Assembly: GCA_016699265.1 (NCBI GenBank)
Contig: CP064967.1
Location: forward strand, 150,001 to 182,000
Direction of reading: 5' to 3'
Source of the DNA: Candidatus Saccharimonadota bacterium
GTDB taxonomy: Bacteria; Patescibacteriota; Microgenomatia; UBA1406; GWC2-37-13
DNA length: 32,000 bases
The notes beneath the pieces are model-generated. The model had not been told where the DNA came from and did not search any database. It worked only from the letters and a program-made list of their open reading frames with translations. Both the position numbers and the translations under genes were made by a program. Position 1 is the first letter of the stretch, and each line of letters begins with the position of its first letter. Below, in pieces: positions 1,438 through 28,377 of this stretch.

Positions 1438-3279
1438 ATGAGGCCATTTTCTAAAGGATTTGCATTTGTTCCACTCCTTATCGTCTTCTTCCTTCTTGTT
1501 GTATCTGCGGTGACAAGCTATGTGGTAATCAATCAAGGAACGGGTGGTTATTCGAGTCGCGCCGCTGGAAGCTGTCAGTACAATCTTTGTTCTGCGATGG
1601 TGAATTCTAATGGGCAATGTAGGCAAGACGCGCTTAATGCTGGACATTGTATCACTGTCTTGAAAAGTCCTGGAATTTATGGATGTTCACCAAAAAATGA
1701 ATTCATGCAGAGTAATAACGGCATTGCATATTTTTCATGTCCTGCTAGTGCAACCTGTACCAATAACGCTCAATGTTCATCTGGACTGTCTTGTTCGAAC
1801 GGAACATGTCAAACGCCAAAATGCAGTAATGTGGGAAGTGGGGCAAATTGTGGCAATAATGTGTATGGATGTAATTCTTTCGTTTCTTGTTCTTCCGGTT
1901 TAGATTGTTATAAAGGGTCAAACACGGCGGCGACATGTATGAGTCCAGCAGCAGTTTGTAATAAATTTTCCAATACCAGTTCTCAGTATAAAACTTGCTG
2001 TCAGAGAACAGAAGGACAATCTTGTGGATCAGGAGTTAATGAATGTACCGAGGCAACTGCTGGCGCAGGCGTATGTGGATCAGGATTGACTTGCACTGGA
2101 GGGAAATGTGTTGCGGTGAATGCGCCTCTGGTCAATGCTTCAACTTGTTTAGTGGGGTCTGGTTATCAATGTAACCAGCGGGCACTTGCTACCCTTCACT
2201 GTCCTGACGGAATTATCGATTGTAAGTCGCCAAATGTATGTCTAGACAGCAGTAATAACTCCGTTTCGGGCACAACAAGAACGGGTACCTGTAAAGCAAG
2301 AGCTACTGATCCAAAGCCTACATCAACGCCAACTCCAGCAGATCCAAAGCCAACCGTAACGCCTGTAACAGGTGGTGGAGGCGGTGGTGGCGGTGGAGGA
2401 GGCGGTGGAGGTGGAGCCGTAACTCCTACAGATCCAAAGCCAACAACAGGATCTCAATCGTGTGCTGGTGGAGTTCTTTGTAATGGAACGTTGGTAACCG
2501 GCACAGCAGGACAAGTAGTATGCGGTCAAAAAGATGCTAGTGGAACCTGTCGAACAAGTCAGTGTAATGGATCAACGGGTCAGTGGAACTATGTAGGAAA
2601 TGCCTGCTCCGTAACCCTAACTCCGACAGTTACCCCTGCAGTAACTACAACAACGACACCAACAACGACACCAACAACGACACCAACAACAACACCAACA
2701 ACAACGCCGGGTGCAGAAGAAACGGAAAACATCACTCTGGCGCTCACAGTAAGATTACAAGGAGTTACGGCTAAACCAAAAGGAGGTCAGACTGTTCCAT
2801 TTAAGGTCAAGTTGAGGGGTCCGACAAGTAAAGAATATTCAGCAGGCACTCTTACGGCCAATGCATCAGGGCTTTGGACTGGATCTGTTGCCTTTACCTC
2901 CGTTGCGGTCGGTAGTGATACTAAATACACAGTCTTTGTAAAGGTTGGAAAGCACCTTCAAAAGAGAGTCTGTGGTTTTGCTCCATCTGAAGCTTCAGGT
3001 GGTCTGTACAACTGTTCAGATAGTGCAATTCCATTATCTGCAGGGGTAAACAATCTTGACTTCTCAGGAATAATGCTCTTGGCAGGAGATCTTCCTTCAT
3101 CTTCCGGAGTACAAAATGGAGTTGTGGATTCCTACGATATCTCATACATATTAAACAATCTTGGATCTACCGATGCCACAAAGATGGCGATTGGAGATCT
3201 TAACTTCGACGGCGTAATAGATACCCAAGATAGATCGCTCATCATACAGTCGTTAAATGTTAAGTATGATGACGAGTAA
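1438..3279 (+). CDS. Secreted Cys-rich modular surface protein with Gly15 and Pro/Thr linkers, a beta-sandwich-like domain and a C-terminal dockerin-like module
   Basis: The N-terminal hydrophobic segment KGFAFVPLLIVFFLLVV resembles a signal or pilin-like leader. Repeated C-x-SGL-x-C-x-G-x-C modules are present. The C-terminus carries two Ca-loop-like repeats, NGVVDSYDISYILNNL and GDLNFDGVIDTQDRSLIIQSL, typical of dockerin type I. Confidence 0.7.
   Translation: MRPFSKGFAFVPLLIVFFLLVVSAVTSYVVINQGTGGYSSRAAGSCQYNLCSAMVNSNGQCRQDALNAGHCITVLKSPGIYGCSPKNEFMQSNNGIAYFSCPASATCTNNAQCSSGLSCSNGTCQTPKCSNVGSGANCGNNVYGCNSFVSCSSGLDCYKGSNTAATCMSPAAVCNKFSNTSSQYKTCCQRTEGQSCGSGVNECTEATAGAGVCGSGLTCTGGKCVAVNAPLVNASTCLVGSGYQCNQRALATLHCPDGIIDCKSPNVCLDSSNNSVSGTTRTGTCKARATDPKPTSTPTPADPKPTVTPVTGGGGGGGGGGGGGGGAVTPTDPKPTTGSQSCAGGVLCNGTLVTGTAGQVVCGQKDASGTCRTSQCNGSTGQWNYVGNACSVTLTPTVTPAVTTTTTPTTTPTTTPTTTPTTTPGAEETENITLALTVRLQGVTAKPKGGQTVPFKVKLRGPTSKEYSAGTLTANASGLWTGSVAFTSVAVGSDTKYTVFVKVGKHLQKRVCGFAPSEASGGLYNCSDSAIPLSAGVNNLDFSGIMLLAGDLPSSSGVQNGVVDSYDISYILNNLGSTDATKMAIGDLNFDGVIDTQDRSLIIQSLNVKYDDE
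2371..2415 (+). repeat. Fifteen consecutive Gly codons (mixed GGT/GGA/GGC) inside the CDS
   Basis: Read directly: ggtggtggaggcggtggtggcggtggaggaggcggtggaggtgga. It is flanked by three copies of the DPKPT-coding motif gatccaaagcc (about 2309, 2341, 2431). Confidence 0.9.
2644..2709 (+). repeat. Tandem 12-nt (TTTP)n linker repeat inside the CDS
   Basis: The unit acaacgacacca or acaacaacacca is repeated about 5 times and encodes TTTTTPTTTPTTTPTTTPTTTP. Confidence 0.9.
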
Positions 3280-3390
3280 GTTATTTAATTATTTCTTATT
3301 TATTATTTTTTATTGAATTTTTAAATATAAAAATTGACACATTGAACAATAAATAACAAATAACAAATTAAAAATTTCAAAATAAATAAT

Positions 3391-3987
3391 ATGGATCCCG
3401 TGCAAGAACAACCACCAGTAAAGAAAAATTTTCATAGGAGTCTTTTAGTTGTCCTCGTATTAATCGCGGCAGTAGAGTTCCTTCTACTTATGAACAAGAA
3501 CGGTCAGTTTCCACCGGCCGCATCTACCAAGCAGGAAGCCGAAGTTGAGTCGCCTCTGCAAGAAGGTGTTATGGAGGGCGTATTCAGTCTGAAGGCAGAT
3601 AAGGTCGCAACAGTAGGTGCTCCTCTTACATTCACTGTAGCTGCAGACTCCAATAAAAGAAAAGTCGTAGGCTTCGATACTATAGTTGAGTACGATGAGA
3701 CCGCCTTTACTTTAGGTTCAGTAAGGTCATCTTTGAAGGGTTTTACCGCAACCTCAAGTACGCGTAAAAAATACCTCGAAGTTACTTCGATTAAGGAGCC
3801 ACAGGAAGCCGTAACACCCGTGTTGAAAAATACTGAAGTTCTAAGCTTTACTCTTACACCTCGTAAGGTGGGTAATTACAAAGTTAATCTCGTTGATAGA
3901 GTTGGGGAATCGAGTACGAAGTATATCGATAGCGAGACGCAGGTGTATCTCCCGAAGGTGAATGGAGTGACTGTTACTGTAAAGTAA
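3391..3987 (+). CDS. N-terminally membrane-anchored cohesin-like domain protein
   Basis: TM segment SLLVVLVLIAAVEFLLLM, then VGAPLTFTVAADSNKRKVVGFDTIVEYDETAFTLGSV...VLSFTLTPRKVGNYKV. This fits the cohesin pattern (exposed G, x-v-x-V, i-x-yD...l). Confidence 0.6.
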   Translation: MDPVQEQPPVKKNFHRSLLVVLVLIAAVEFLLLMNKNGQFPPAASTKQEAEVESPLQEGVMEGVFSLKADKVATVGAPLTFTVAADSNKRKVVGFDTIVEYDETAFTLGSVRSSLKGFTATSSTRKKYLEVTSIKEPQEAVTPVLKNTEVLSFTLTPRKVGNYKVNLVDRVGESSTKYIDSETQVYLPKVNGVTVTVK

Positions 3988-4011
3988 ACTTAATTCGAAG
4001 TTTGAAATTCG

Positions 4012-4031
4012 ACCTGCCTACCGGCAGGCAG
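4012..4031. repeat. Palindromic repeat CCTGCCT(A)CCGGCAGGCAGG, copy 1 of 3
   Basis: cctgcctaccggcaggcagg lies 25 nt after the stop of 3391..3987. Near-identical palindromes occur at 26886-26903 and 28411-28428. It may also act as a hairpin terminator, but there is no T-tract. Confidence 0.7.
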
Positions 4032-4100
4032 GAATGTTTCAAAATTGGAACATTTGACCTTGACTTCAAATTAAAAACTTTAAATTTTTAATTAATATTA

Positions 4101-4796
4101 ATGAAAAAGGATATAACTAGACTATTTATCGCACTCTTCCTTTTCCTATGGGTAGCAACCGTACACGGTAGTGTTTATGCGGCTTTTCTAAAGTTTGATC
4201 AGGCAAGTTATGATCTTGAGGTTGGGGACACATTTGATGCACAGATAATAGTAAATCCAGGCACTGCAGAGGTAACTTCGATCGATTCCTATGTGAAGTA
4301 CGGAAGCAGCGTTATCAATGCTACGGGCGTCACAGAGGGATCTTATTTCCCAACAGTACTGAACGACTTAACTAGCGGAAAGGTCTATATTGCTGGACTT
4401 GTTGATAGTCCATCCGACTTCAAGTCTGGCACCGGTACCGTGGCTACAATAACCTTCGAAGCACTCAAGGTAGGAACCACAGAACTTGTATTTGACTGTG
4501 ATGGGCAGGCAACGGTGACCTCAAAGGTAATCAAGAACGATATTAACTCCACAAATATTATTCAGTGTAGCCAAAATGGTACCGCAACGGTAACGATAGG
4601 CGTTGCAGCAGCATCAGGATCAACATTGACCCCAACACCAACCGGCGCTTCAACAGAAAATACATCCACACCAACTACCAGACCAGTAACTCAGCTACCG
4701 GCAAGCGGTTCAGCTGAGAATATGATGCTATTGGGAGCTATAGGTGCAGTACTGGTTGTGATTGGTGGAGTAGCGAAGTTAATAAGACCATTTTGA
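4101..4796 (+). CDS. Cohesin-domain surface protein with a C-terminal LPxTG-like (LPASG) sorting signal
   Basis: Signal peptide LFIALFLFLWVATVHGSVYA. Cohesin-like core: VGDTFDAQIIVNPGTAEVTSIDSYVKYGSSVI...GTGTVATITFEALKVGTTELVF. The C-terminus has QLPASGSAE, the hydrophobic stretch LLGAIGAVLVVIGGVA, then KLIRPF. Confidence 0.7.
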   Translation: MKKDITRLFIALFLFLWVATVHGSVYAAFLKFDQASYDLEVGDTFDAQIIVNPGTAEVTSIDSYVKYGSSVINATGVTEGSYFPTVLNDLTSGKVYIAGLVDSPSDFKSGTGTVATITFEALKVGTTELVFDCDGQATVTSKVIKNDINSTNIIQCSQNGTATVTIGVAAASGSTLTPTPTGASTENTSTPTTRPVTQLPASGSAENMMLLGAIGAVLVVIGGVAKLIRPF

Positions 4797-5457: not shown

Positions 5458-6057
5458 CTATCTTACGAGAAGATTCGTTACGAAGCTGATTGCCGGAGAG
5501 ATAATCGAGGAAATCATCGATCCCTTTCCAATAGGAAGGATTAATAAGATTAGGAAAAGTAGACCATATCTCTCAAGCTGATACCACTCGCGCGCTTTAT
5601 CCTCAGGCAGAAGTCCTCCAACTATCTTAAAGCCGTCTAATGGGTGAATTGGAAGCAGATTGAATACTGCGAGCATTACATTGAGCTGGATAAAGATAAT
5701 CAGGAAAGACATGGATGTAGCCCTAAGAACTATTGATAGAATGACTGCAATGAGTAAATTAGAGATAGGACCAGCCACTGAGATTAACGCCGCATCTCTT
5801 CGAGGGCTTTTCAGATTAAACGGATCAAACTGCACGGGTCGTCCCCATCCGAATCCGAACATAAATAAGAATAAAATTCCCATCAGATCGATGTGTGCTT
5901 TTGGGTTGAGCGTAACTCGTCCCTGAAGTCGGGGAGTAGGATCCCCAAGTTTATCCGCCACAAATGCGTGGCTAAATTCATGAACGGCAATAGCCATAAG
6001 GAGAGCGACTAGATAAATAACAAAAAGAAGGGGAGACTGGGACAATATGCTGATCAT
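5458..6057 (-). CDS. Site-2 protease family (peptidase M50) zinc metalloprotease
   Basis: HExxH motif in the TM helix (AVHEFSHAF) and the second motif FNLLPIHPLDG. The protein is polytopic. Confidence 0.8.
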   Translation of the reverse strand: MISILSQSPLLFVIYLVALLMAIAVHEFSHAFVADKLGDPTPRLQGRVTLNPKAHIDLMGILFLFMFGFGWGRPVQFDPFNLKSPRRDAALISVAGPISNLLIAVILSIVLRATSMSFLIIFIQLNVMLAVFNLLPIHPLDGFKIVGGLLPEDKAREWYQLERYGLLFLILLILPIGKGSMISSIISPAISFVTNLLVR

Positions 6058-20793: not shown

Positions 20794-20815
20794 CAAGATT
20801 GTAGTCAAGGGTAAG

Positions 20816-20903
20816 GCGACGATTGTTGTTTGTGATGTTTTTTGCTGCAGCTGGGGGGCTGGAGTTCCGACGGGGGTCGAGAACAAAACACAACAATCGT
20901 CGC
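20816..20903. repeat. 13-14 bp inverted repeat enclosing a ~60-nt GC-rich loop
   Basis: GCGACGATTGTTG(T) at 20816-20829 pairs with (A)CAACAATCGTCGC at 20890-20903. GGGTAAGG occurs on both sides (20809-20816 and 20909-20916). Confidence 0.75.
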
Positions 20904-21016
20904 GGTATGGGTAAGGAACTATTCCTCAAGTCTTCCTGGTTGGAAGTTCGTTTCGATTTGCATCGAGACAGGCTCTAGGCTTCGGGACCTAGGTTGAGGT
21001 AGCCTCTTTTGTGGTG

Positions 21017-22036
21017 TCACTTGGTGACTGTGGTCTCCAAAACGGAGATCAACGCATCGCCTGCATAGACGAGAACGCGAACGTTCACGCTATTACACCC
21101 TTGTGGTGTACCGCAGTTTGCACCGCTGTTGCCGGGATCACCGCTGTTCAGGACTTCGTCCGGATGAGCCATCGTGGGCATGTTCAGCATGTTCGCCGAA
21201 CCGTGGGAAACCAGTCCCCAGACACCCCATTCGAGTGCATCTCCGTTGAAGTACCGGCCTCGCAACGTGAATCCGTTGTCGAAGGAGTTGTCGCGGAACG
21301 TGTAGGACTGATCCATCACGTTGATGACGAGCAACAAGCAACCCTGATCCGAACCGACCATGCCGCACTCGAAACCTTCGAAGTTGTAGGGACCGCTGTA
21401 GTAGCGATACTCCCAAGCTCCGACGATGAAGTCGCAGGGATCGGTGTAGCAATACGGGCTGTCATACGTGCCGTACTCCATTCCGTCAGGAACCTGTGTG
21501 CCGTCGACGACGCGGAATTCCGGTACATCCGTGTTGGGGACGTTCGGGAATGTCTTCCACATCTCGGGGGCTGGGTCCTGCAGGCGGTCCATCCAGGCCA
21601 TCACGATCGGGTTTTCGGCGAGCCGTTCGGTTGCGTTGATTGTCCACGCTCCGTGGGTCTCCGTTGAGGAGAAGCTTGGTGTGGGCTTCATTGCGACCGT
21701 GTTGGCCGTTGCCGTTGTGACCGTCGTTGCCGTTGCCGTTGTGACCGTCGTGGCGGGTGTCATGGTGGTCGTTGCGGGCGTGACCGTCGTGTCGGGCGTA
21801 GCCGTCGTCGGGTCCGTGGGCGTTCCAGCGGTCGTGCAAAGGACGTTGGCGTCCTGCAGATTGCCGGGGTGCTTCACGTTCCACTGCTCGACCTGCGTCA
21901 CGCAGACGGGGTCCAGGTTGGACACTGCCGAGGTTCCGTTGTTCACGGTGATCGCGTTGAACGCGAGCATACCGAAAACGAGTGTAATCACCACACTGAG
22001 TGCGGTGTAGAAACCCTTTCTATTGGTGGGACGCAT
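21017..22036 (-). CDS. Island protein 1: secreted or membrane-anchored protein with a Thr/Pro linker and a Cys-containing C-terminal domain of unknown function
   Basis: GGAGG-5nt-ATG at 22036. TM/signal FYTALSVVITLVFGMLAF. The linker is TPTDPTTATPDTTVTPATTT.... The ~200 aa C-terminal domain has no motif I recognise. Confidence 0.7.
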   Translation of the reverse strand: MRPTNRKGFYTALSVVITLVFGMLAFNAITVNNGTSAVSNLDPVCVTQVEQWNVKHPGNLQDANVLCTTAGTPTDPTTATPDTTVTPATTTMTPATTVTTATATTVTTATANTVAMKPTPSFSSTETHGAWTINATERLAENPIVMAWMDRLQDPAPEMWKTFPNVPNTDVPEFRVVDGTQVPDGMEYGTYDSPYCYTDPCDFIVGAWEYRYYSGPYNFEGFECGMVGSDQGCLLLVINVMDQSYTFRDNSFDNGFTLRGRYFNGDALEWGVWGLVSHGSANMLNMPTMAHPDEVLNSGDPGNSGANCGTPQGCNSVNVRVLVYAGDALISVLETTVTK

Positions 22037-22245
22037 CACTACCTCCTTCGAGGGTTGTTCATGGTTTGAGCCGTGATGTGCTCTTAAGCCGACTAAGGGG
22101 AGTTCCCTTCCATGAGCCGATCACCATACGACAGTGACGTTGTTCGAGGTTGAGTCGAGCATGACGCTGTCACATTTACGGATTTTACTCCGAAGGACCC
22201 GATCTGTTTGATCGTTGGCGATATCCTATCGTCTTCACCTTGAGC

Positions 22246-22689
22246 TCAGCCGCAGGTAGCCACGAAATCCAGCCACTTGGCCGGGTCGGGGATGACGCTG
22301 TTGAGCTCTTCCACGTCGGCGACGCAGGTGTCGTAGTTCGTCTGGATGACGATCTCTCTGATCTGGTCGCGGTTGAAACCGGTGTCGTCCTTCTTCACGA
22401 AGACGATTGCGCCGAGGATCATGGTGAAGATCAGGCTGATCAGGGTCAGTCCGAGGGACTTCTGGACGTTCTTGGAGAGTTCATAGAGGCTCTCTTCGGT
22501 CGCTGCCAGGGGCATCCATGTGGCGTGATCCGCCGGGTTCAGGGTCTCGAGGTGGGCGACGATGCACTCCTTCAGAGCCTTCTTGGATCCATTGCTGGAC
22601 AGTAAGAGACCTTGTGCGCACCGACGCAAGACCTTCTTGTTGGTCTGCTCCTTGACCCATTGGATCAGTTCTTCGTTGGTGGGATTCAT
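22246..22689 (-). CDS. Island protein 2: single-pass membrane protein of unknown function
   Basis: AAGGA-6nt-ATG. The central TM is LGLTLISLIFTMILGAIVFV. It is preceded by conserved upstream module copy A. Confidence 0.65.
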   Translation of the reverse strand: MNPTNEELIQWVKEQTNKKVLRRCAQGLLLSSNGSKKALKECIVAHLETLNPADHATWMPLAATEESLYELSKNVQKSLGLTLISLIFTMILGAIVFVKKDDTGFNRDQIREIVIQTNYDTCVADVEELNSVIPDPAKWLDFVATCG

Positions 22690-22695
22690 AACACG

Positions 22696-22828
22696 TCCTT
22701 TCGACGATTAGTACTTGTCATCTCGACACGGTATCAGCGGGGTTGCTGAACCGATTTTACGGGATTGTCCGAAGACTTACCGTAGGACTGCAAGCTCGAC
22801 CGAAGTCGGCTGCGATGATCGTGCCCTG
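22696..22828 (-). promoter_or_regulatory. Conserved upstream module, copy A (putative promoter / structured leader)
   Basis: About 130 nt align with 23407-23534. It contains two hairpins and the RBS block CGTCGAAAGGA next to the start codon. See findings. Confidence 0.55.
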
Positions 22829-22842
22829 ATGGGGCCGTTGTA

Positions 22843-23400
22843 CTACAGCGTCGGAGGCAGCGTTAGCTGCGGCGGCGGCGATGTGGTCGTTGTCGGCGGC
22901 GATGTGGTCGTTGTCGGCGGCGATGTGGTCGTTGTCGGCGGCGGCTGTGTCGTCGTTGTCGGCGGCGGCTGTGTCGTCGTTGTCGGCGGCGATGTGGTCG
23001 TTGTCGTTGACGTTGTTGTCGTCGTTGACGTTGTCGTGGTGGTGGCCGGAACACACGAGTTCACGTTGAACTCTTGTTCTGACACATTCCCTGCGTGACC
23101 GTTCGTGTTCCAACTTGCTGACAAAACAACTGATCCTCCTTTCGAGAAGTCGAATGGGATCGTACCGTTGGTGTGAGTACCGTTCCAGACGAGCTGCTTG
23201 TAGGTGGTGACCTCCTTGTACACGATCTTGATCGTGATGGAGTTGCTGTTCGCGTCGGCGAAACCTTCGGTCTCATAGCTCACGCCTACGCAATCTGCGG
23301 ACAGGACGCTTGTGTGCGCACTGGCAATCCGGTTGGTGGTGAATACCATCAACATGTTAAATACAACGAGCCATACTAAGACTCTCTTTTTGCGTGTCAT
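22843..23400 (-). CDS. Island protein 3: secreted protein with a C-terminal (T4-5 S/Q P2-3)n repeat tail
   Basis: The ATG at 23400 is preceded by AAGGA-6nt, chosen by analogy with copy A. Signal peptide KKRVLVWLVVFNMLMVFTTNRIASA. The tail is TTTTSPPTTTTQPPP... Confidence 0.7.
   Translation of the reverse strand: MTRKKRVLVWLVVFNMLMVFTTNRIASAHTSVLSADCVGVSYETEGFADANSNSITIKIVYKEVTTYKQLVWNGTHTNGTIPFDFSKGGSVVLSASWNTNGHAGNVSEQEFNVNSCVPATTTTTSTTTTTSTTTTTSPPTTTTQPPPTTTTQPPPTTTTSPPTTTTSPPTTTTSPPPQLTLPPTL
22869..23045. repeat. Tandem 21/24-nt coding repeats (Thr/Pro tail of island protein 3)
   Basis: ggcggcgatgtggtcgttgtc x3, then ggcggcggctgtgtcgtcgttgtc x2, then further degenerate units. All other frames and strands give low-complexity shadow ORFs. 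Confidence 0.9.
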
Positions 23401-23406
23401 GGAAGT

Positions 23407-23534
23407 TCCTTTCGACGTTGTCATCTCGACACGGTGTCAGCGGGATTGCTGAACCGATTATACGGGCTTAAGACCAGAGGTCTATACCGTAGGACTGCAA
23501 TCTCGGCTGAGCCGGATGCGATGATCGTGCCCTG
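23407..23534 (-). promoter_or_regulatory. Conserved upstream module, copy B
   Basis: It aligns with 22696-22828. The differences fall in loops or bulges, or form compensatory pairs. Confidence 0.55.
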
Positions 23535-23547
23535 TTTGAAGAAAACC

Positions 23548-23622
23548 TCAGTGTCTGAAAAAATTCTTCAGAACTTGATGGAGCCTCCTTCGTCTCGATC
23601 GGTTGTAGTATCTACATCCCAT
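23548..23622 (-). CDS. Candidate 24-aa Arg-rich micro-ORF (MGCRYYNRSRRRRLHQVLKNFFRH)
   Basis: It has the best SD in the window, AAAGGAGGTGATT-ATG. It ends 13 nt before upstream module copy B, which mirrors the 14-nt gap between the stop of island protein 3 and copy A. It is very short and not verifiable from sequence alone. Confidence 0.25.
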   Translation of the reverse strand: MGCRYYNRSRRRRLHQVLKNFFRH

Positions 23623-24107
23623 AATCACCTCCTTTCGGTTGTGAGTGGATTTCGATTCTTGACCGAAGCGACCTTGTGACGGTTAGTTCCACGCGGAGCT
23701 CTATCTCTATGTGAATGACAAAGAACAAAGTTCAAATATCAAACAAAATCCAAAGTTCAAAAACTGAACAATTGATGAGAGAGCTACTACGACGTATGAC
23801 TAAAATAAAAATTCCGAATAAAAAAAAGAAAATAAACAAAACCAAAAATACAATTGAATGTGGGGCAGTACCTATGAAATAAAAATTAAAAACTAAAAAT
23901 TAAAAATTACATTCATAAACACCGTTCCACACTCAATGATCTTGATTGTGTTCGTTCCTTATACCCAAATTGTTAAAGAGCGTGATAATCGCTTATCCAT
24001 GCTTACGGATAAGTCACATCACTCTTACAAACACCTATGAACGTAAGGTTGCAGCAAGCTATCGCTGCTCTTACGAGCGTAAGTGCCTAGATTTTTAGTC
24101 CAGGGTT

Positions 24108-24134
24108 GAAAAGGTATGGGGCTCATACCTTTTC
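24108..24134. terminator. Hairpin terminator downstream of 24247..24924
   Basis: GAAAAGGTATG-gggct-CATACCTTTTC is an 11-bp stem with A/T tracts forming the stem ends, so it is usable on either strand. Confidence 0.5.
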
Positions 24135-24246
24135 ATCTCTAAACTGAAATGAAAAAAAGTATGAAGAATTTCTGAAGAAGGTTGATGTGTGGAGTTTGGG
24201 TAGTTTCGCCTTCGTTGCCCACACGATGGCCTTTCAGAAAAGCTTC

Positions 24247-24924
24247 TTACTTTACCCGTCTTTTAAGATACGCGCCCGATCCAAGACCAAGCATCTGTAA
24301 TGCTAGTAATCCAAGTCCATACTCAGGTCCAGCATTAGGCTGAGATTTTACTCCGAGTACTTTTTTCTCAATACAAAACTGAGCAGCATCATCGTCACTT
24401 ACCATTGAATTTGAAGCTACAGCCTTGTTATAGACACAGAAAACACCCTTATCTGTTGGGAGTTTTTCCTGAGACACAACCTTCGTGTTTAATGTATATA
24501 TATATTCCTCACCCGCATTTAAGGCAAGGTTGTCCGATAGAGTAATGGTTCGAGTTGCTAAATCGTAGTTCTTCACATCTACAGCCTCGAGACTTGTAGG
24601 AAGTGTGTCTTTTACCACGATGTTGCTCAATTTATGATCGGAAGTATTCTTAACCTTGATTTTGAACGATACGGTTTGGCCAGCAAAGAAGCGCTGATCT
24701 GTAGATCCAAGATTATCGACAAAGGTTGTAGAGGTCGTTCCACCCTTGGTAGTTACCTGATTCATACCCACGGTCTTATCAACCAAGATAGAGTTAGATT
24801 GACCACCCTGTCCGTAAGGTCCGTACGCTCCGTACTGACCGTACTGGGCTAAAGCTCCTTGACCTAATGAAAGGAACAAGAAACCTGACAAAAGAAATGT
24901 TACTACTCGCGTCCCCTTAATCAT
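24247..24924 (-). CDS. Secreted DUF11-like (conserved repeat domain) surface protein with a C-terminal sorting-signal-like tail
   Basis: Signal peptide VVTFLLSGFLFLSLGQGALA, then a QYGQYGAYGPYGQGGQ low-complexity stretch. VDKTV...FFAGQTVSFKIKVKNTSDHKLSNIVVKDTLP matches the DUF11/TIGR01451 pattern. The tail is QPNAGPEY + GLGLLALQMLGLGSGA + YLKRRVK. Confidence 0.7.
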   Translation of the reverse strand: MIKGTRVVTFLLSGFLFLSLGQGALAQYGQYGAYGPYGQGGQSNSILVDKTVGMNQVTTKGGTTSTTFVDNLGSTDQRFFAGQTVSFKIKVKNTSDHKLSNIVVKDTLPTSLEAVDVKNYDLATRTITLSDNLALNAGEEYIYTLNTKVVSQEKLPTDKGVFCVYNKAVASNSMVSDDDAAQFCIEKKVLGVKSQPNAGPEYGLGLLALQMLGLGSGAYLKRRVK

Positions 24925-28169: not shown

Positions 28170-28294
28170 GATTGGCACTCTCTGAGTGAGGCCGAAGGGT
28201 CCGCCTTTGTCAAGACTTCGGTGGACCGAGGGAGTCGCCCCGATTGCCGCAGCATCGGGATCCCGATTGCTTATCGGGAAACCCTCTTCAAATG

Positions 28295-28377
28295 TGCCGA
28301 GGGAGAGAATCGAACTCTCATGACCTTGCGGTCATAGGTTTTTGAGACCTACGTGTCTGCCGTTCCACCACCTCGGC
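28295..28377 (-). tRNA. tRNA-Leu (anticodon CAA)
   Basis: The minus-strand sequence is GCCGAGG-TG-GTG-GAACGGCAGA-CAC-G-TAGGT-CTCAAAA-ACCTA-T GACC GCAA GGTC AT-GAGAG-TTCGATT-CTCTC-CCTCGGC-A. It folds into a full cloverleaf with a long variable arm. No CCA is encoded. Confidence 0.85.

Follow-up and report, generated by a model that had tools for sequence, protein, structure and literature searches.

Introduction

Four-way-junction riboswitches with a translational platform, such as SAM-I and the yybP-ykoY Mn2+ riboswitch, combine a closing stem P1 with sequence-variable, covarying helices and invariant junction nucleotides. They lie in the 5' leader directly before the Shine-Dalgarno (SD) sequence, and their P1 competes with an SD-sequestering helix. 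A module of ~135 nucleotides (nt) with the same layout was found twice, on the minus strand, in the 32,000-nt stretch of DNA analysed here (the window: Candidatus Saccharimonadota bacterium, assembly GCA_016699265.1, contig CP064967.1, positions 150,001 to 182,000 of the forward strand), and for this module the competition between closing stem and SD helix is predicted. Unlike the SAM-I and yybP-ykoY riboswitches, the module matches no Rfam 15 family and is found only in a single operon, within a narrow subclade of the Candidate Phyla Radiation (CPR), where the genes that follow it encode surface or secreted proteins instead of metabolic or transport functions.

Other described systems resemble the module in part. 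The PyrR attenuators of the Bacillus pyr operon, with one copy in the leader and two between cistrons, likewise repeat one structured RNA module along an operon; each copy controls the next gene, as is proposed for the module, and a protein effector is plausible in the new case too. However, the pyr sites act by transcription attenuation with terminator and antiterminator hairpins, whereas no terminator was seen in the module, no PyrR-like gene is present at its locus, and the architectures differ. RNA thermometers of the ROSE and fourU types share with it a multi-hairpin 5' untranslated region (UTR), a short pyrimidine stretch (UCCU) able to pair with the SD, and a mode of action that would require no ligand; in thermometers, though, the SD sits in the last, imperfect hairpin, while the anti-SD of the module lies ~95 nt upstream in a junction whose strands are invariant, suggesting specific recognition. 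ERIC/REP repeats and attC sites are similar in length (~125-130 nt), in being imperfect palindromes placed just past stop codons between open reading frames (ORFs), and in being followed by different genes. The module differs from these in that it is not dispersed (two copies and one partial copy in one operon), has no core recombination sites or integrase, and adopts a branched fold tied to SD and ATG.

CPR bacteria (Patescibacteria) account for a large share of bacterial diversity. To our knowledge, almost nothing is known of their gene regulation, and a full-text literature search for riboswitches or structured RNAs in CPR bacteria returned nothing relevant.

Module copies in the window

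The two copies, one ahead of the gene for P3 and one ahead of the gene for P2, two proteins of a GC-rich island in the window, were scored with covariance model (CM) R1.

22690-22828, minus strand: module copy A, intercistronic leader of P2 (CM R1 160 bits, E = 5e-43)
23401-23534, minus strand: module copy B, leader of P3 (CM R1 131 bits, E = 7e-35)

The initial annotation had proposed a duplicated module upstream of two island genes, and blastn confirmed the duplication with 85.6% identity over 118 nt (E = 9e-28). The global identity of the copies was 78.6%, and a repeat search returned three ungapped blocks of 88-92% identity at spacings of 703, 707 and 706. Copy A starts with CAGGGCAC at 22828, 14 nt past the P3 stop codon (TAG, 22845-22843), and is followed by the SD AAGGAC (22700-22695) and the P2 ATG at 22689. 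Copy B starts at 23534, 13 nt past the stop codon of a small ORF (TGA, 23550-23548), with its SD AAAGGA at 23411-23406 and the likely P3 ATG at 23400. The similarity ended at the module borders, and the flanking coding sequence, including the N-termini of P3 and P2, was unrelated. These results agreed with the start of 13-14 nt past the preceding stop codon that had been reported, and a duplication extending into coding sequence, which the same annotation had named as evidence that would speak against structural selection, was not found.

In copy B the order is UCAUC, hairpin H1 (23497-23519), AGUCCU, hairpin H2, UAUAAU, hairpin H3, GUGUCGA, GAUGA and the SD AAAGGA, and copy A has the same architecture, with H1 at 22790-22813. 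H1 differs between the copies by two double changes (G-C to U-A and A-U to G-C), and differences in H3 were confined to the loop and the bulge; both sets of differences had been described correctly in the initial annotation, which also gave these positions for H1 and numbered H3 as hairpin 2. The outer stem of H2 (UACGG/CCGUA) encloses an inner stem that reads GUC-UUCG-GAC in copy A versus GACC-UCU-GGUC in copy B. This H2 had been recorded as a variable stretch of ~20 nt, and the module accordingly consists of three hairpins and a closing stem, not of two hairpins.

Conserved fold and compensatory changes

Copies A and B were compared with related versions of the module from other loci (designated by L numbers below), giving 11 sequences in which 31 pairs were scored. 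The common fold was a four-way junction, with the 5-bp closing stem P1 (UCAUC/GAUGA; distinct from the gene P1 of the operon) around H1, H2 and H3. In minus-strand order from the 5' end, it comprises AACAGGGCACG(A), UCAUC, H1, CAGUCC, H2, (U)AAAAU, H3, GUGUCGA, GAUGA and CAA, then a linker of 0-16 nt, the SD (GAAAGGAC), 5-8 nt and AUG. The SD is situated 8-25 nt downstream. H1 has 9-10 bp with two conserved bulges, H2 has the outer stem UACGG/CCGUA and an inner hairpin that is variable or absent, and H3 takes the form CGGU-UCAGC, loop AAYCCC, GCUGA-U-ACCG. The single-stranded joints CAGUCCU, (U)AAAAUC and GUGUCGAG were invariant.

The module is a structure held by compensatory change across its relatives. 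In the 11 sequences, 93.7% of cells were paired, compared with 86.2±0.8% after shuffling and 20-40% with slid partners. Both sides had changed in 12 of the 31 pairs, against 3.5±1.3 in shuffled alignments (0 of 500 as high) and 0-3 with slid partners. A structure-blind MAFFT alignment gave 10 double-changed pairs versus 3.6 in shuffles, and over three runs the counts were 10-12 versus 3.5-4.1 (again 0 of 500 as high), the structure having been derived from the same sequences on which these pair counts were made. RNAalifold recovered H1, H2 and H3 independently.

The changes were distributed unevenly over the helices. In H1, five pairs covaried, some of them in as many as three pair types, and none was broken in the best register: pair 20-42 was U-A, A-U or C-G, pair 21-41 was A-U, G-C or U-A, pairs 19-44, 28-36 and 29-35 covaried too, and the inner stem was re-coded in L035. 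For H2, L035 had an entirely different coding of the hairpin (UGAACC-AAC-GGUUCA), L021 and L065 had a shorter form, and elsewhere the inner stem was swapped or deleted. In the closing stem, U-A became C-G in L035, and these were the sole two changes in ~30 otherwise invariant flanking positions; L026 carried U-G. The outer stem of H3 had two compensated pairs, with G-C replaced by A-U in L026 and in L065, and its inner stem was nearly invariant and hence uninformative, with three U·U mismatches.

The eight further versions, which keep the stems, are the kind of homologs that the initial annotation had suggested looking for, and they supported its proposal of selection on an RNA or DNA structure in place of simple recent duplication. 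Because wobble pairs (U-G and G-U) occurred on the sense strand and the module held a fixed place before the SD and start codon, the RNA level was favoured over the DNA level. Insertions and deletions in the module were not multiples of three, which marks it as non-coding. An invariant AUG within GAGAUGACAA was considered as a conserved start codon and rejected, since the variants do not agree in the frame that it has with respect to the next gene.

Distribution among relatives

Relatives were sampled from contigs with homologs of P2 (nine clusters) and of P1, the protein encoded by the last gene of the operon (92 clusters), together with 20 GTDB genome loci obtained with a P1 profile. Nineteen contigs with identical P1 or P2 proteins matched the window collinearly at 99% identity, and they provided no covariation information. 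Eight further distinct versions of the module were found, in L020, L021, L026, L028, L035, L039, L056/L058 (partial) and L065.

The gene next to the module varied. The module stood upstream of P2 homologs that were 54-57% identical in protein in L020, L026/L027, L028, L056 and L058, after a P3-like gene and upstream of P2 in L021-L025, upstream of P2 in L039/L059, and directly upstream of a P1-type gene in L035 and L065, which have no P2. The placement itself was constant: 11-16 nt separated the module from the stop codon upstream, and SD and ATG came straight after it, whether the next gene was P3, P2 or P1-type. The conserved blocks of the module were invariant although the P2 proteins were only 50-59% identical. 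The L021 version was a mosaic of a B-type H1, an H2 of the type seen in the partial third leader described below (leader C), and an A-type tail.

As far as seen, the module is confined to one GC3-rich operon (rich in G+C at third codon positions) of a narrow Microgenomates subclade. By the names of homologs, the organism of the window falls among the Microgenomates of the CPR/Patescibacteria (Candidatus Woesebacteria and Levybacteria). A CM R1 search recovered exactly these module versions and no others in ~450 kb of related loci, a total in which 20-kb flanks were counted. Among the 20 GTDB loci with P1 homologs, the module was present in L035 and L039 only, and none was detected by CM, nhmmer or regular expression in the other 18 loci or in L060. 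A metagenome scan with the pattern TCNGCAANNCCGCTGNNNNNGTGTCGAG returned the window's own population (L051) and chance matches only, with no added diversity, and viral contigs did not contain the module pattern.

Eight of the GTDB metagenome-assembled genome records involved (L029, L031, L035-L037, L039, L044 and L048) were titled 'uncultured Gammaproteobacteria bacterium' despite CPR-type genes and synteny, and the title is probably a default or erroneous label.

Searches for known families

At gathering thresholds in Rfam 15, only the tRNA-Leu at 28295-28377 passed in the window, and neither module copy was matched; at E<=10 on 20800-24300, no match overlapped either copy, riboswitch, ribozyme and tRNA models included. 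This is in line with the initial annotation, in which no named riboswitch or leader had been recognised. ARAGORN returned only the tRNA-Leu(CAA) at 28294-28377, and the Rfam tRNA model had no match at E<=10 in the island. One trait of riboswitches was found, a conserved, covariation-supported structure in the 5' leader, placed before SD and ATG in all variants. The genes around it, for uncharacterised surface proteins, offered no hint of a ligand. Readings of the module as a hammerhead, twister-sister, T-arm, tRNA-like or attC element, or as part of a diversity-generating retroelement or a retron, were rejected on features or model searches, and no phage link was found for it.

Proposed mode of action

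We regard it as slightly more probable than the reverse that the module is an unnamed, cis-acting structured mRNA leader, riboswitch-like or protein-binding, which controls translation of the next cistron by an SD/anti-SD switch. From the conserved fold and its place before the start codon we infer action as RNA, in cis and on translation. The module would form part of the polycistronic sense transcript (minus strand) of an operon with three surface-protein genes, where two cistrons are each preceded by one copy; in relatives it precedes whichever gene follows. It would toggle between two mutually exclusive, nearly isoenergetic folds. In the OFF fold, the joint GUCCU would pair with the SD AGGAC, so that ribosome binding is blocked and the closing stem P1 is open; in the ON fold, the closing stem would shut the junction, bury GUCCU in the core and free the SD. 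The balance might be set by a small ligand, by a protein or peptide, or by temperature, and the outcome would be that translation of the downstream cistron is tuned independently of the upstream one.

Several predictions were consistent with such a switch. The invariant GUCCU and the SD AGGAC are perfectly complementary, RNAalifold itself chose the long-range helix between them, and this helix dominated the ensembles of copy A, L021 and L026. The GUCCU:SD helix and the closing stem cross, and therefore they cannot coexist in a nested fold. When the P1-closed and the antiSD:SD folds were enforced, they were 0-4 kcal/mol apart in 9 of 9 variants, and each was the minimum-free-energy fold in some of them. 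SD occlusion appears to be a recurring theme, because the SD was also held in a local hairpin in L065 (AAUCCU/AGGAUU) and in leader C (CCUC/GAGG). As to the effector, both P2 and the Arg-rich portion of the small-ORF peptide are missing from L035, where the module persists with compensated stems and so does not depend on these two products, and L065 has no P2; an effector consisting of P2 or the Arg-rich small-ORF peptide alone is therefore unlikely.

A number of observations weigh against this interpretation. The anti-SD pairing showed no covariation, both sides being invariant, amounted to only 4 bp in copy B and L065, and was not favoured by RNAfold in copy B, L028, L039 and L035; near-isoenergetic alternative folds are common among RNAs of 140 nt. 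Support for the closing stem came from one double change and one wobble. The outer stem of H3 was largely broken in L028, with pair 89-107 unpaired in 6 of the 11 sequences, and the z-scores of single-sequence folding were weak (about -1.5). The ~9-11 distinct sequences derive from roughly 3-4 lineages, so that the change events were few and non-independent. Finally, occurrence in one operon of a narrow clade is unlike that of classic metabolite riboswitches.

The module can nevertheless be described as a new, so far unnamed, covariation-supported structured leader with a plausible regulatory logic, and at ~135 nt it offers a small, concrete object for biochemical probing and for ligand or protein fishing. 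A more far-reaching version, which we consider rather doubtful, makes the module either the aptamer of a hitherto undescribed riboswitch class peculiar to CPR/Microgenomates or the element bound by the co-encoded Arg-rich micro-peptide; it would sense a signal related to episymbiosis and switch on translation of the GC3-rich, fast-recombining surface-protein operon cistron by cistron. If this were true, it would be among the first regulatory RNAs defined in CPR bacteria; if the module were merely a stability or processing element, the finding would be routine.

Alternative explanations

A reading at the level of DNA and transcription treats the module as a terminator-plus-promoter cassette, in which H1 would be a terminator lacking a U-tract or a 3'-end stabiliser of the ORF upstream, TA(A/T)AAT an internal -10 element and H3 a 5'-UTR stabiliser, the duplication having copied an intergenic control region. 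It draws on the retention of TAAAAT/TATAAT in most copies, on the start of H1 ~30 nt past the stop codon, on a σ70-like match of 10/12 in copy B (TAGACC-16-TATAAT) and on the fact that CPR promoters are little known. The initial annotation had also called CCGTA(A/T)AAT -10-like. However, no other variant had a -35 element at 16-18 nt, none standing in register with TAAAAT in the other eight. The supposed -10 was TGAAAT in L026 and L065, and the segment makes more sense as a conserved unpaired joint. The 'spacer' would be the covarying hairpin H2, whose length varies by 16 nt and which has no promoter role. The closing stem joins the 5' side of H1 to the 3' side of H3 and covaries in L035. No intrinsic terminator was present within 22690-22828 or 23401-23534, where AGUCCU comes after H1 and GUGUCGAG after H3, and a terminator has no need of the invariant 5' block AACAGGGCACG. 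The cassette is therefore judged unlikely. Still less is to be said for a purely DNA-level repeat, whether an integron attC-like recombination site, a miniature mobile or ERIC/REP-like repeat, or a functionless recent segmental duplication, and we hold this highly improbable. An imperfect palindrome of ~130 nt between ORFs just past stop codons, followed by different genes in different lineages, would suit such a repeat, as would the recombination between copies shown by the mosaic module of L021. Against it, inspection of either copy gave no R''(RYYYAAC)/R'(GTTRRRY) core sites, the fold is a multi-hairpin junction and not one long hairpin, and no integrase, transposase or reverse transcriptase was found in the 32-kb window or in the 20-kb flanks of relatives. 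Copies were absent elsewhere in the ~450 kb of related loci and from viral contigs, gene order was stable among lineages, and strand-specific wobbles, invariant junction strands, the constant tie to SD and ATG and the exclusion of coding sequence from the similarity all point away from a repeat.

Two further explanations keep the module at the RNA level, and each is considered quite unlikely, less so than the DNA repeat and more so than the promoter cassette. One is a sub-case of the translational leader with a named effector: a binding platform for a trans factor encoded in the operon and acting by autoregulation, either the Arg-rich peptide of 24-28 amino acids (aa), in the style of λ N/boxB or Tat/TAR, or the SAP-like cytoplasmic domain of P2. 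The small ORF occurs solely where the module occurs, has a strong SD and preserves MGCRYYNR and the run of Arg although its nucleotides change; a weak SAP-like match was obtained for P2; and limitation to one operon is usual for autoregulatory sites. Yet L035, without P2 and without the Arg-rich stretch, keeps a compensated module, as L065 keeps one without P2; the SAP match lies under the Pfam cut-off; the nucleotide invariance of the first eight small-ORF codons means that the constraint could be on RNA; and the hairpin loops, the usual targets of arginine-rich-motif peptides, are the most variable parts of the module. The other explanation is an RNA processing or stability element, which would direct an endonuclease to the polycistronic mRNA or shield the downstream segment of this mRNA and so set a half-life for each cistron, with no switching. 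The position between cistrons of one operon at a constant distance from the preceding stop codon, the cloverleaf-like four-way shape, and the stable GC-rich, UUCG-capped hairpins at the would-be new 5' end fit this account, whereas no ARAGORN, Rfam tRNA or ribozyme match was obtained, the invariant junction strands and the SD-complementary GUCCU are needless for a simple stabiliser, and the first copy follows merely a 24-aa ORF.

Partial third leader

A third, partial version of the module lies between the P2 and P1 genes.

22040-22245, minus strand: leader C, P2-P1 intergenic region, 205 nt, partial homolog with an nhmmer match in all P2-carrying lineages

The initial annotation had listed a diverged third version upstream of protein P1. 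Its partial relationship stood, since leader C shares GUCCU, a short H2 (CGGA-GUAAAA-UCCG) and UAAAU with the L021-type module, together with the SD-proximal end (CAUGAACAA..CCUCGAAGGAGG), but it has no hairpin 1, closing stem or hairpin 3. It carries its own 5' hairpin (CGAUC-AAACA-GAUCG) and an unrelated insert of ~110 nt in place of H3, and it was undetected by CM R1 at E<=10. Leader C was the most conserved sequence of the operon, with 88-93% nucleotide identity compared with 64-78% in the flanking genes, and it was too conserved to yield covariation information.

In the window's population leader C was dimorphic. L001-type contigs (L001 10430-10660) carry a module-like CGGGAUGACAAU that replaces 20-25 nt, and the H2 loop differs, which suggests gene conversion between leaders. 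An apparent tandem duplication of 227 nt in the blastn output for L002 was rejected, as it corresponds to a scaffold gap (N run, 5659-5758) that coincides with the H2 loop in which leader C is dimorphic.

The operon and its proteins

The G+C content of the window is ~40%, and it rises to 51-62% in a 2.7-kb patch at ~21000-23700. Every gene of the patch is carried on the minus strand, in the order 24-codon ORF, copy B, P3, copy A, P2, leader C and P1. GC3 was 0.69-0.82 in the P1, P2 and P3 genes versus 0.30-0.44 in ten neighbouring genes.

24093-24149: inverted repeat just past the 3' end of the DUF11 gene, with a 5-nt loop between arms of 26 nt (81% complementarity)
23548-23622, minus strand: small ORF at the operon head, MGCRYYNRSRRRRLHQVLKNFFRH, 24 codons, with a strong SD GAAAGGAGGUGA upstream
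22843-23400, minus strand: P3 gene, next after copy B; signal peptide, domain of ~100 aa and TTTTSPP repeats
22246-22689, minus strand: P2 gene, next after copy A; 147 aa, weak SAP-like N-terminus, one transmembrane (TM) helix and a conserved C-terminus
21017-22039, minus strand: P1 gene, last of the operon; 339/340 aa, N-terminal TM helix, Thr/Pro-rich linker and Cys/Trp-rich C-terminal domain

The inverted repeat at 24093-24149 is likely a terminator that parts the DUF11 gene from the island transcript, and because it looks like the terminator of this upstream gene, the GC-rich patch is probably one transcription unit. Where the GC-rich unit starts in relatives, a perfect palindrome TTGACA-N5-TGTCAA stands just 5' of the conserved GAGCUCCGCGUGGAACU (L020 ~4040-4060, L026, L028, and L065 1647-1663). 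It could serve as an operator or as a -35 element, and the window sequence differs at this site. The operon is unusual in having a GC3 twice that of the genome, non-coding leaders that are more conserved than the genes, and a conserved Arg-rich micro-ORF, and it may be important at the cell surface of episymbionts. One conceivable origin of the GC3-rich island is biased gene conversion at a hot spot of recombination.

The small ORF followed the pattern MGCRYYNR(S/R)RRRR... (24-28 aa) and was present solely in module-carrying loci. Its Arg-rich stretch and N-terminus survived nucleotide changes in L039 and L065, and it was truncated in L035. The first eight codons were invariant at the nucleotide level too, so that constraint at the RNA level is possible for them. 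The peptides had no Pfam or NCBIfam match.

P3, too, was without a family in these two databases. Different assemblies of one population contained different numbers of its TTTTSPP/TTTTQPPP repeats (22860-23050, units of 21-24 nt), and assembly breaks were frequent there. Homologs of P2 formed nine clusters only. The SAP-like match of P2, a helix-extended-helix at residues ~18-49 (SAP_new25), was obtained in six of the nine homologs with a best E of 5e-5, under the Pfam cut-off, and its TM helix is followed by a conserved C-terminus of ~47 aa with two invariant Cys; on these features P2 may be a membrane-tethered nucleic-acid-binding protein. In the gene tables of L011, L013 and L015 the 147-aa gene is entered on the opposite strand, which would imply an inversion of P2. 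This was rejected, as blastn showed these loci to be collinear with the window; the call is an antisense-ORF artefact, long antisense ORFs being common in the GC-rich patch.

Homologs of the P1 protein formed 92 clusters, all from CPR as far as the homologs are named, and no relative was found among viral contigs. In an alignment of 23 sequences its C-terminal domain (residues ~120-339) had six invariant Cys and five invariant Trp. The AlphaFold model had a pLDDT of 75, with the C-terminal domain modelled confidently; it gave no significant fold match in the PDB and hence no ligand hint. P1-homolog genes formed local GC-rich patches in nearly all of the 20 CPR genomes examined.

The neighbourhood was the same in the compared loci (relatives of the window, L020, L039 and L065), with a DUF11/CLIPPER gene upstream and genes for proteins of 83 aa and ~960 aa downstream. 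Farther away, at 1438-4796 of the window, cohesin- and dockerin-like domains occurred in adjoining secreted proteins (E = 2e-5 and 2e-4), with DsbB, peptide deformylase and YchF encoded nearby.

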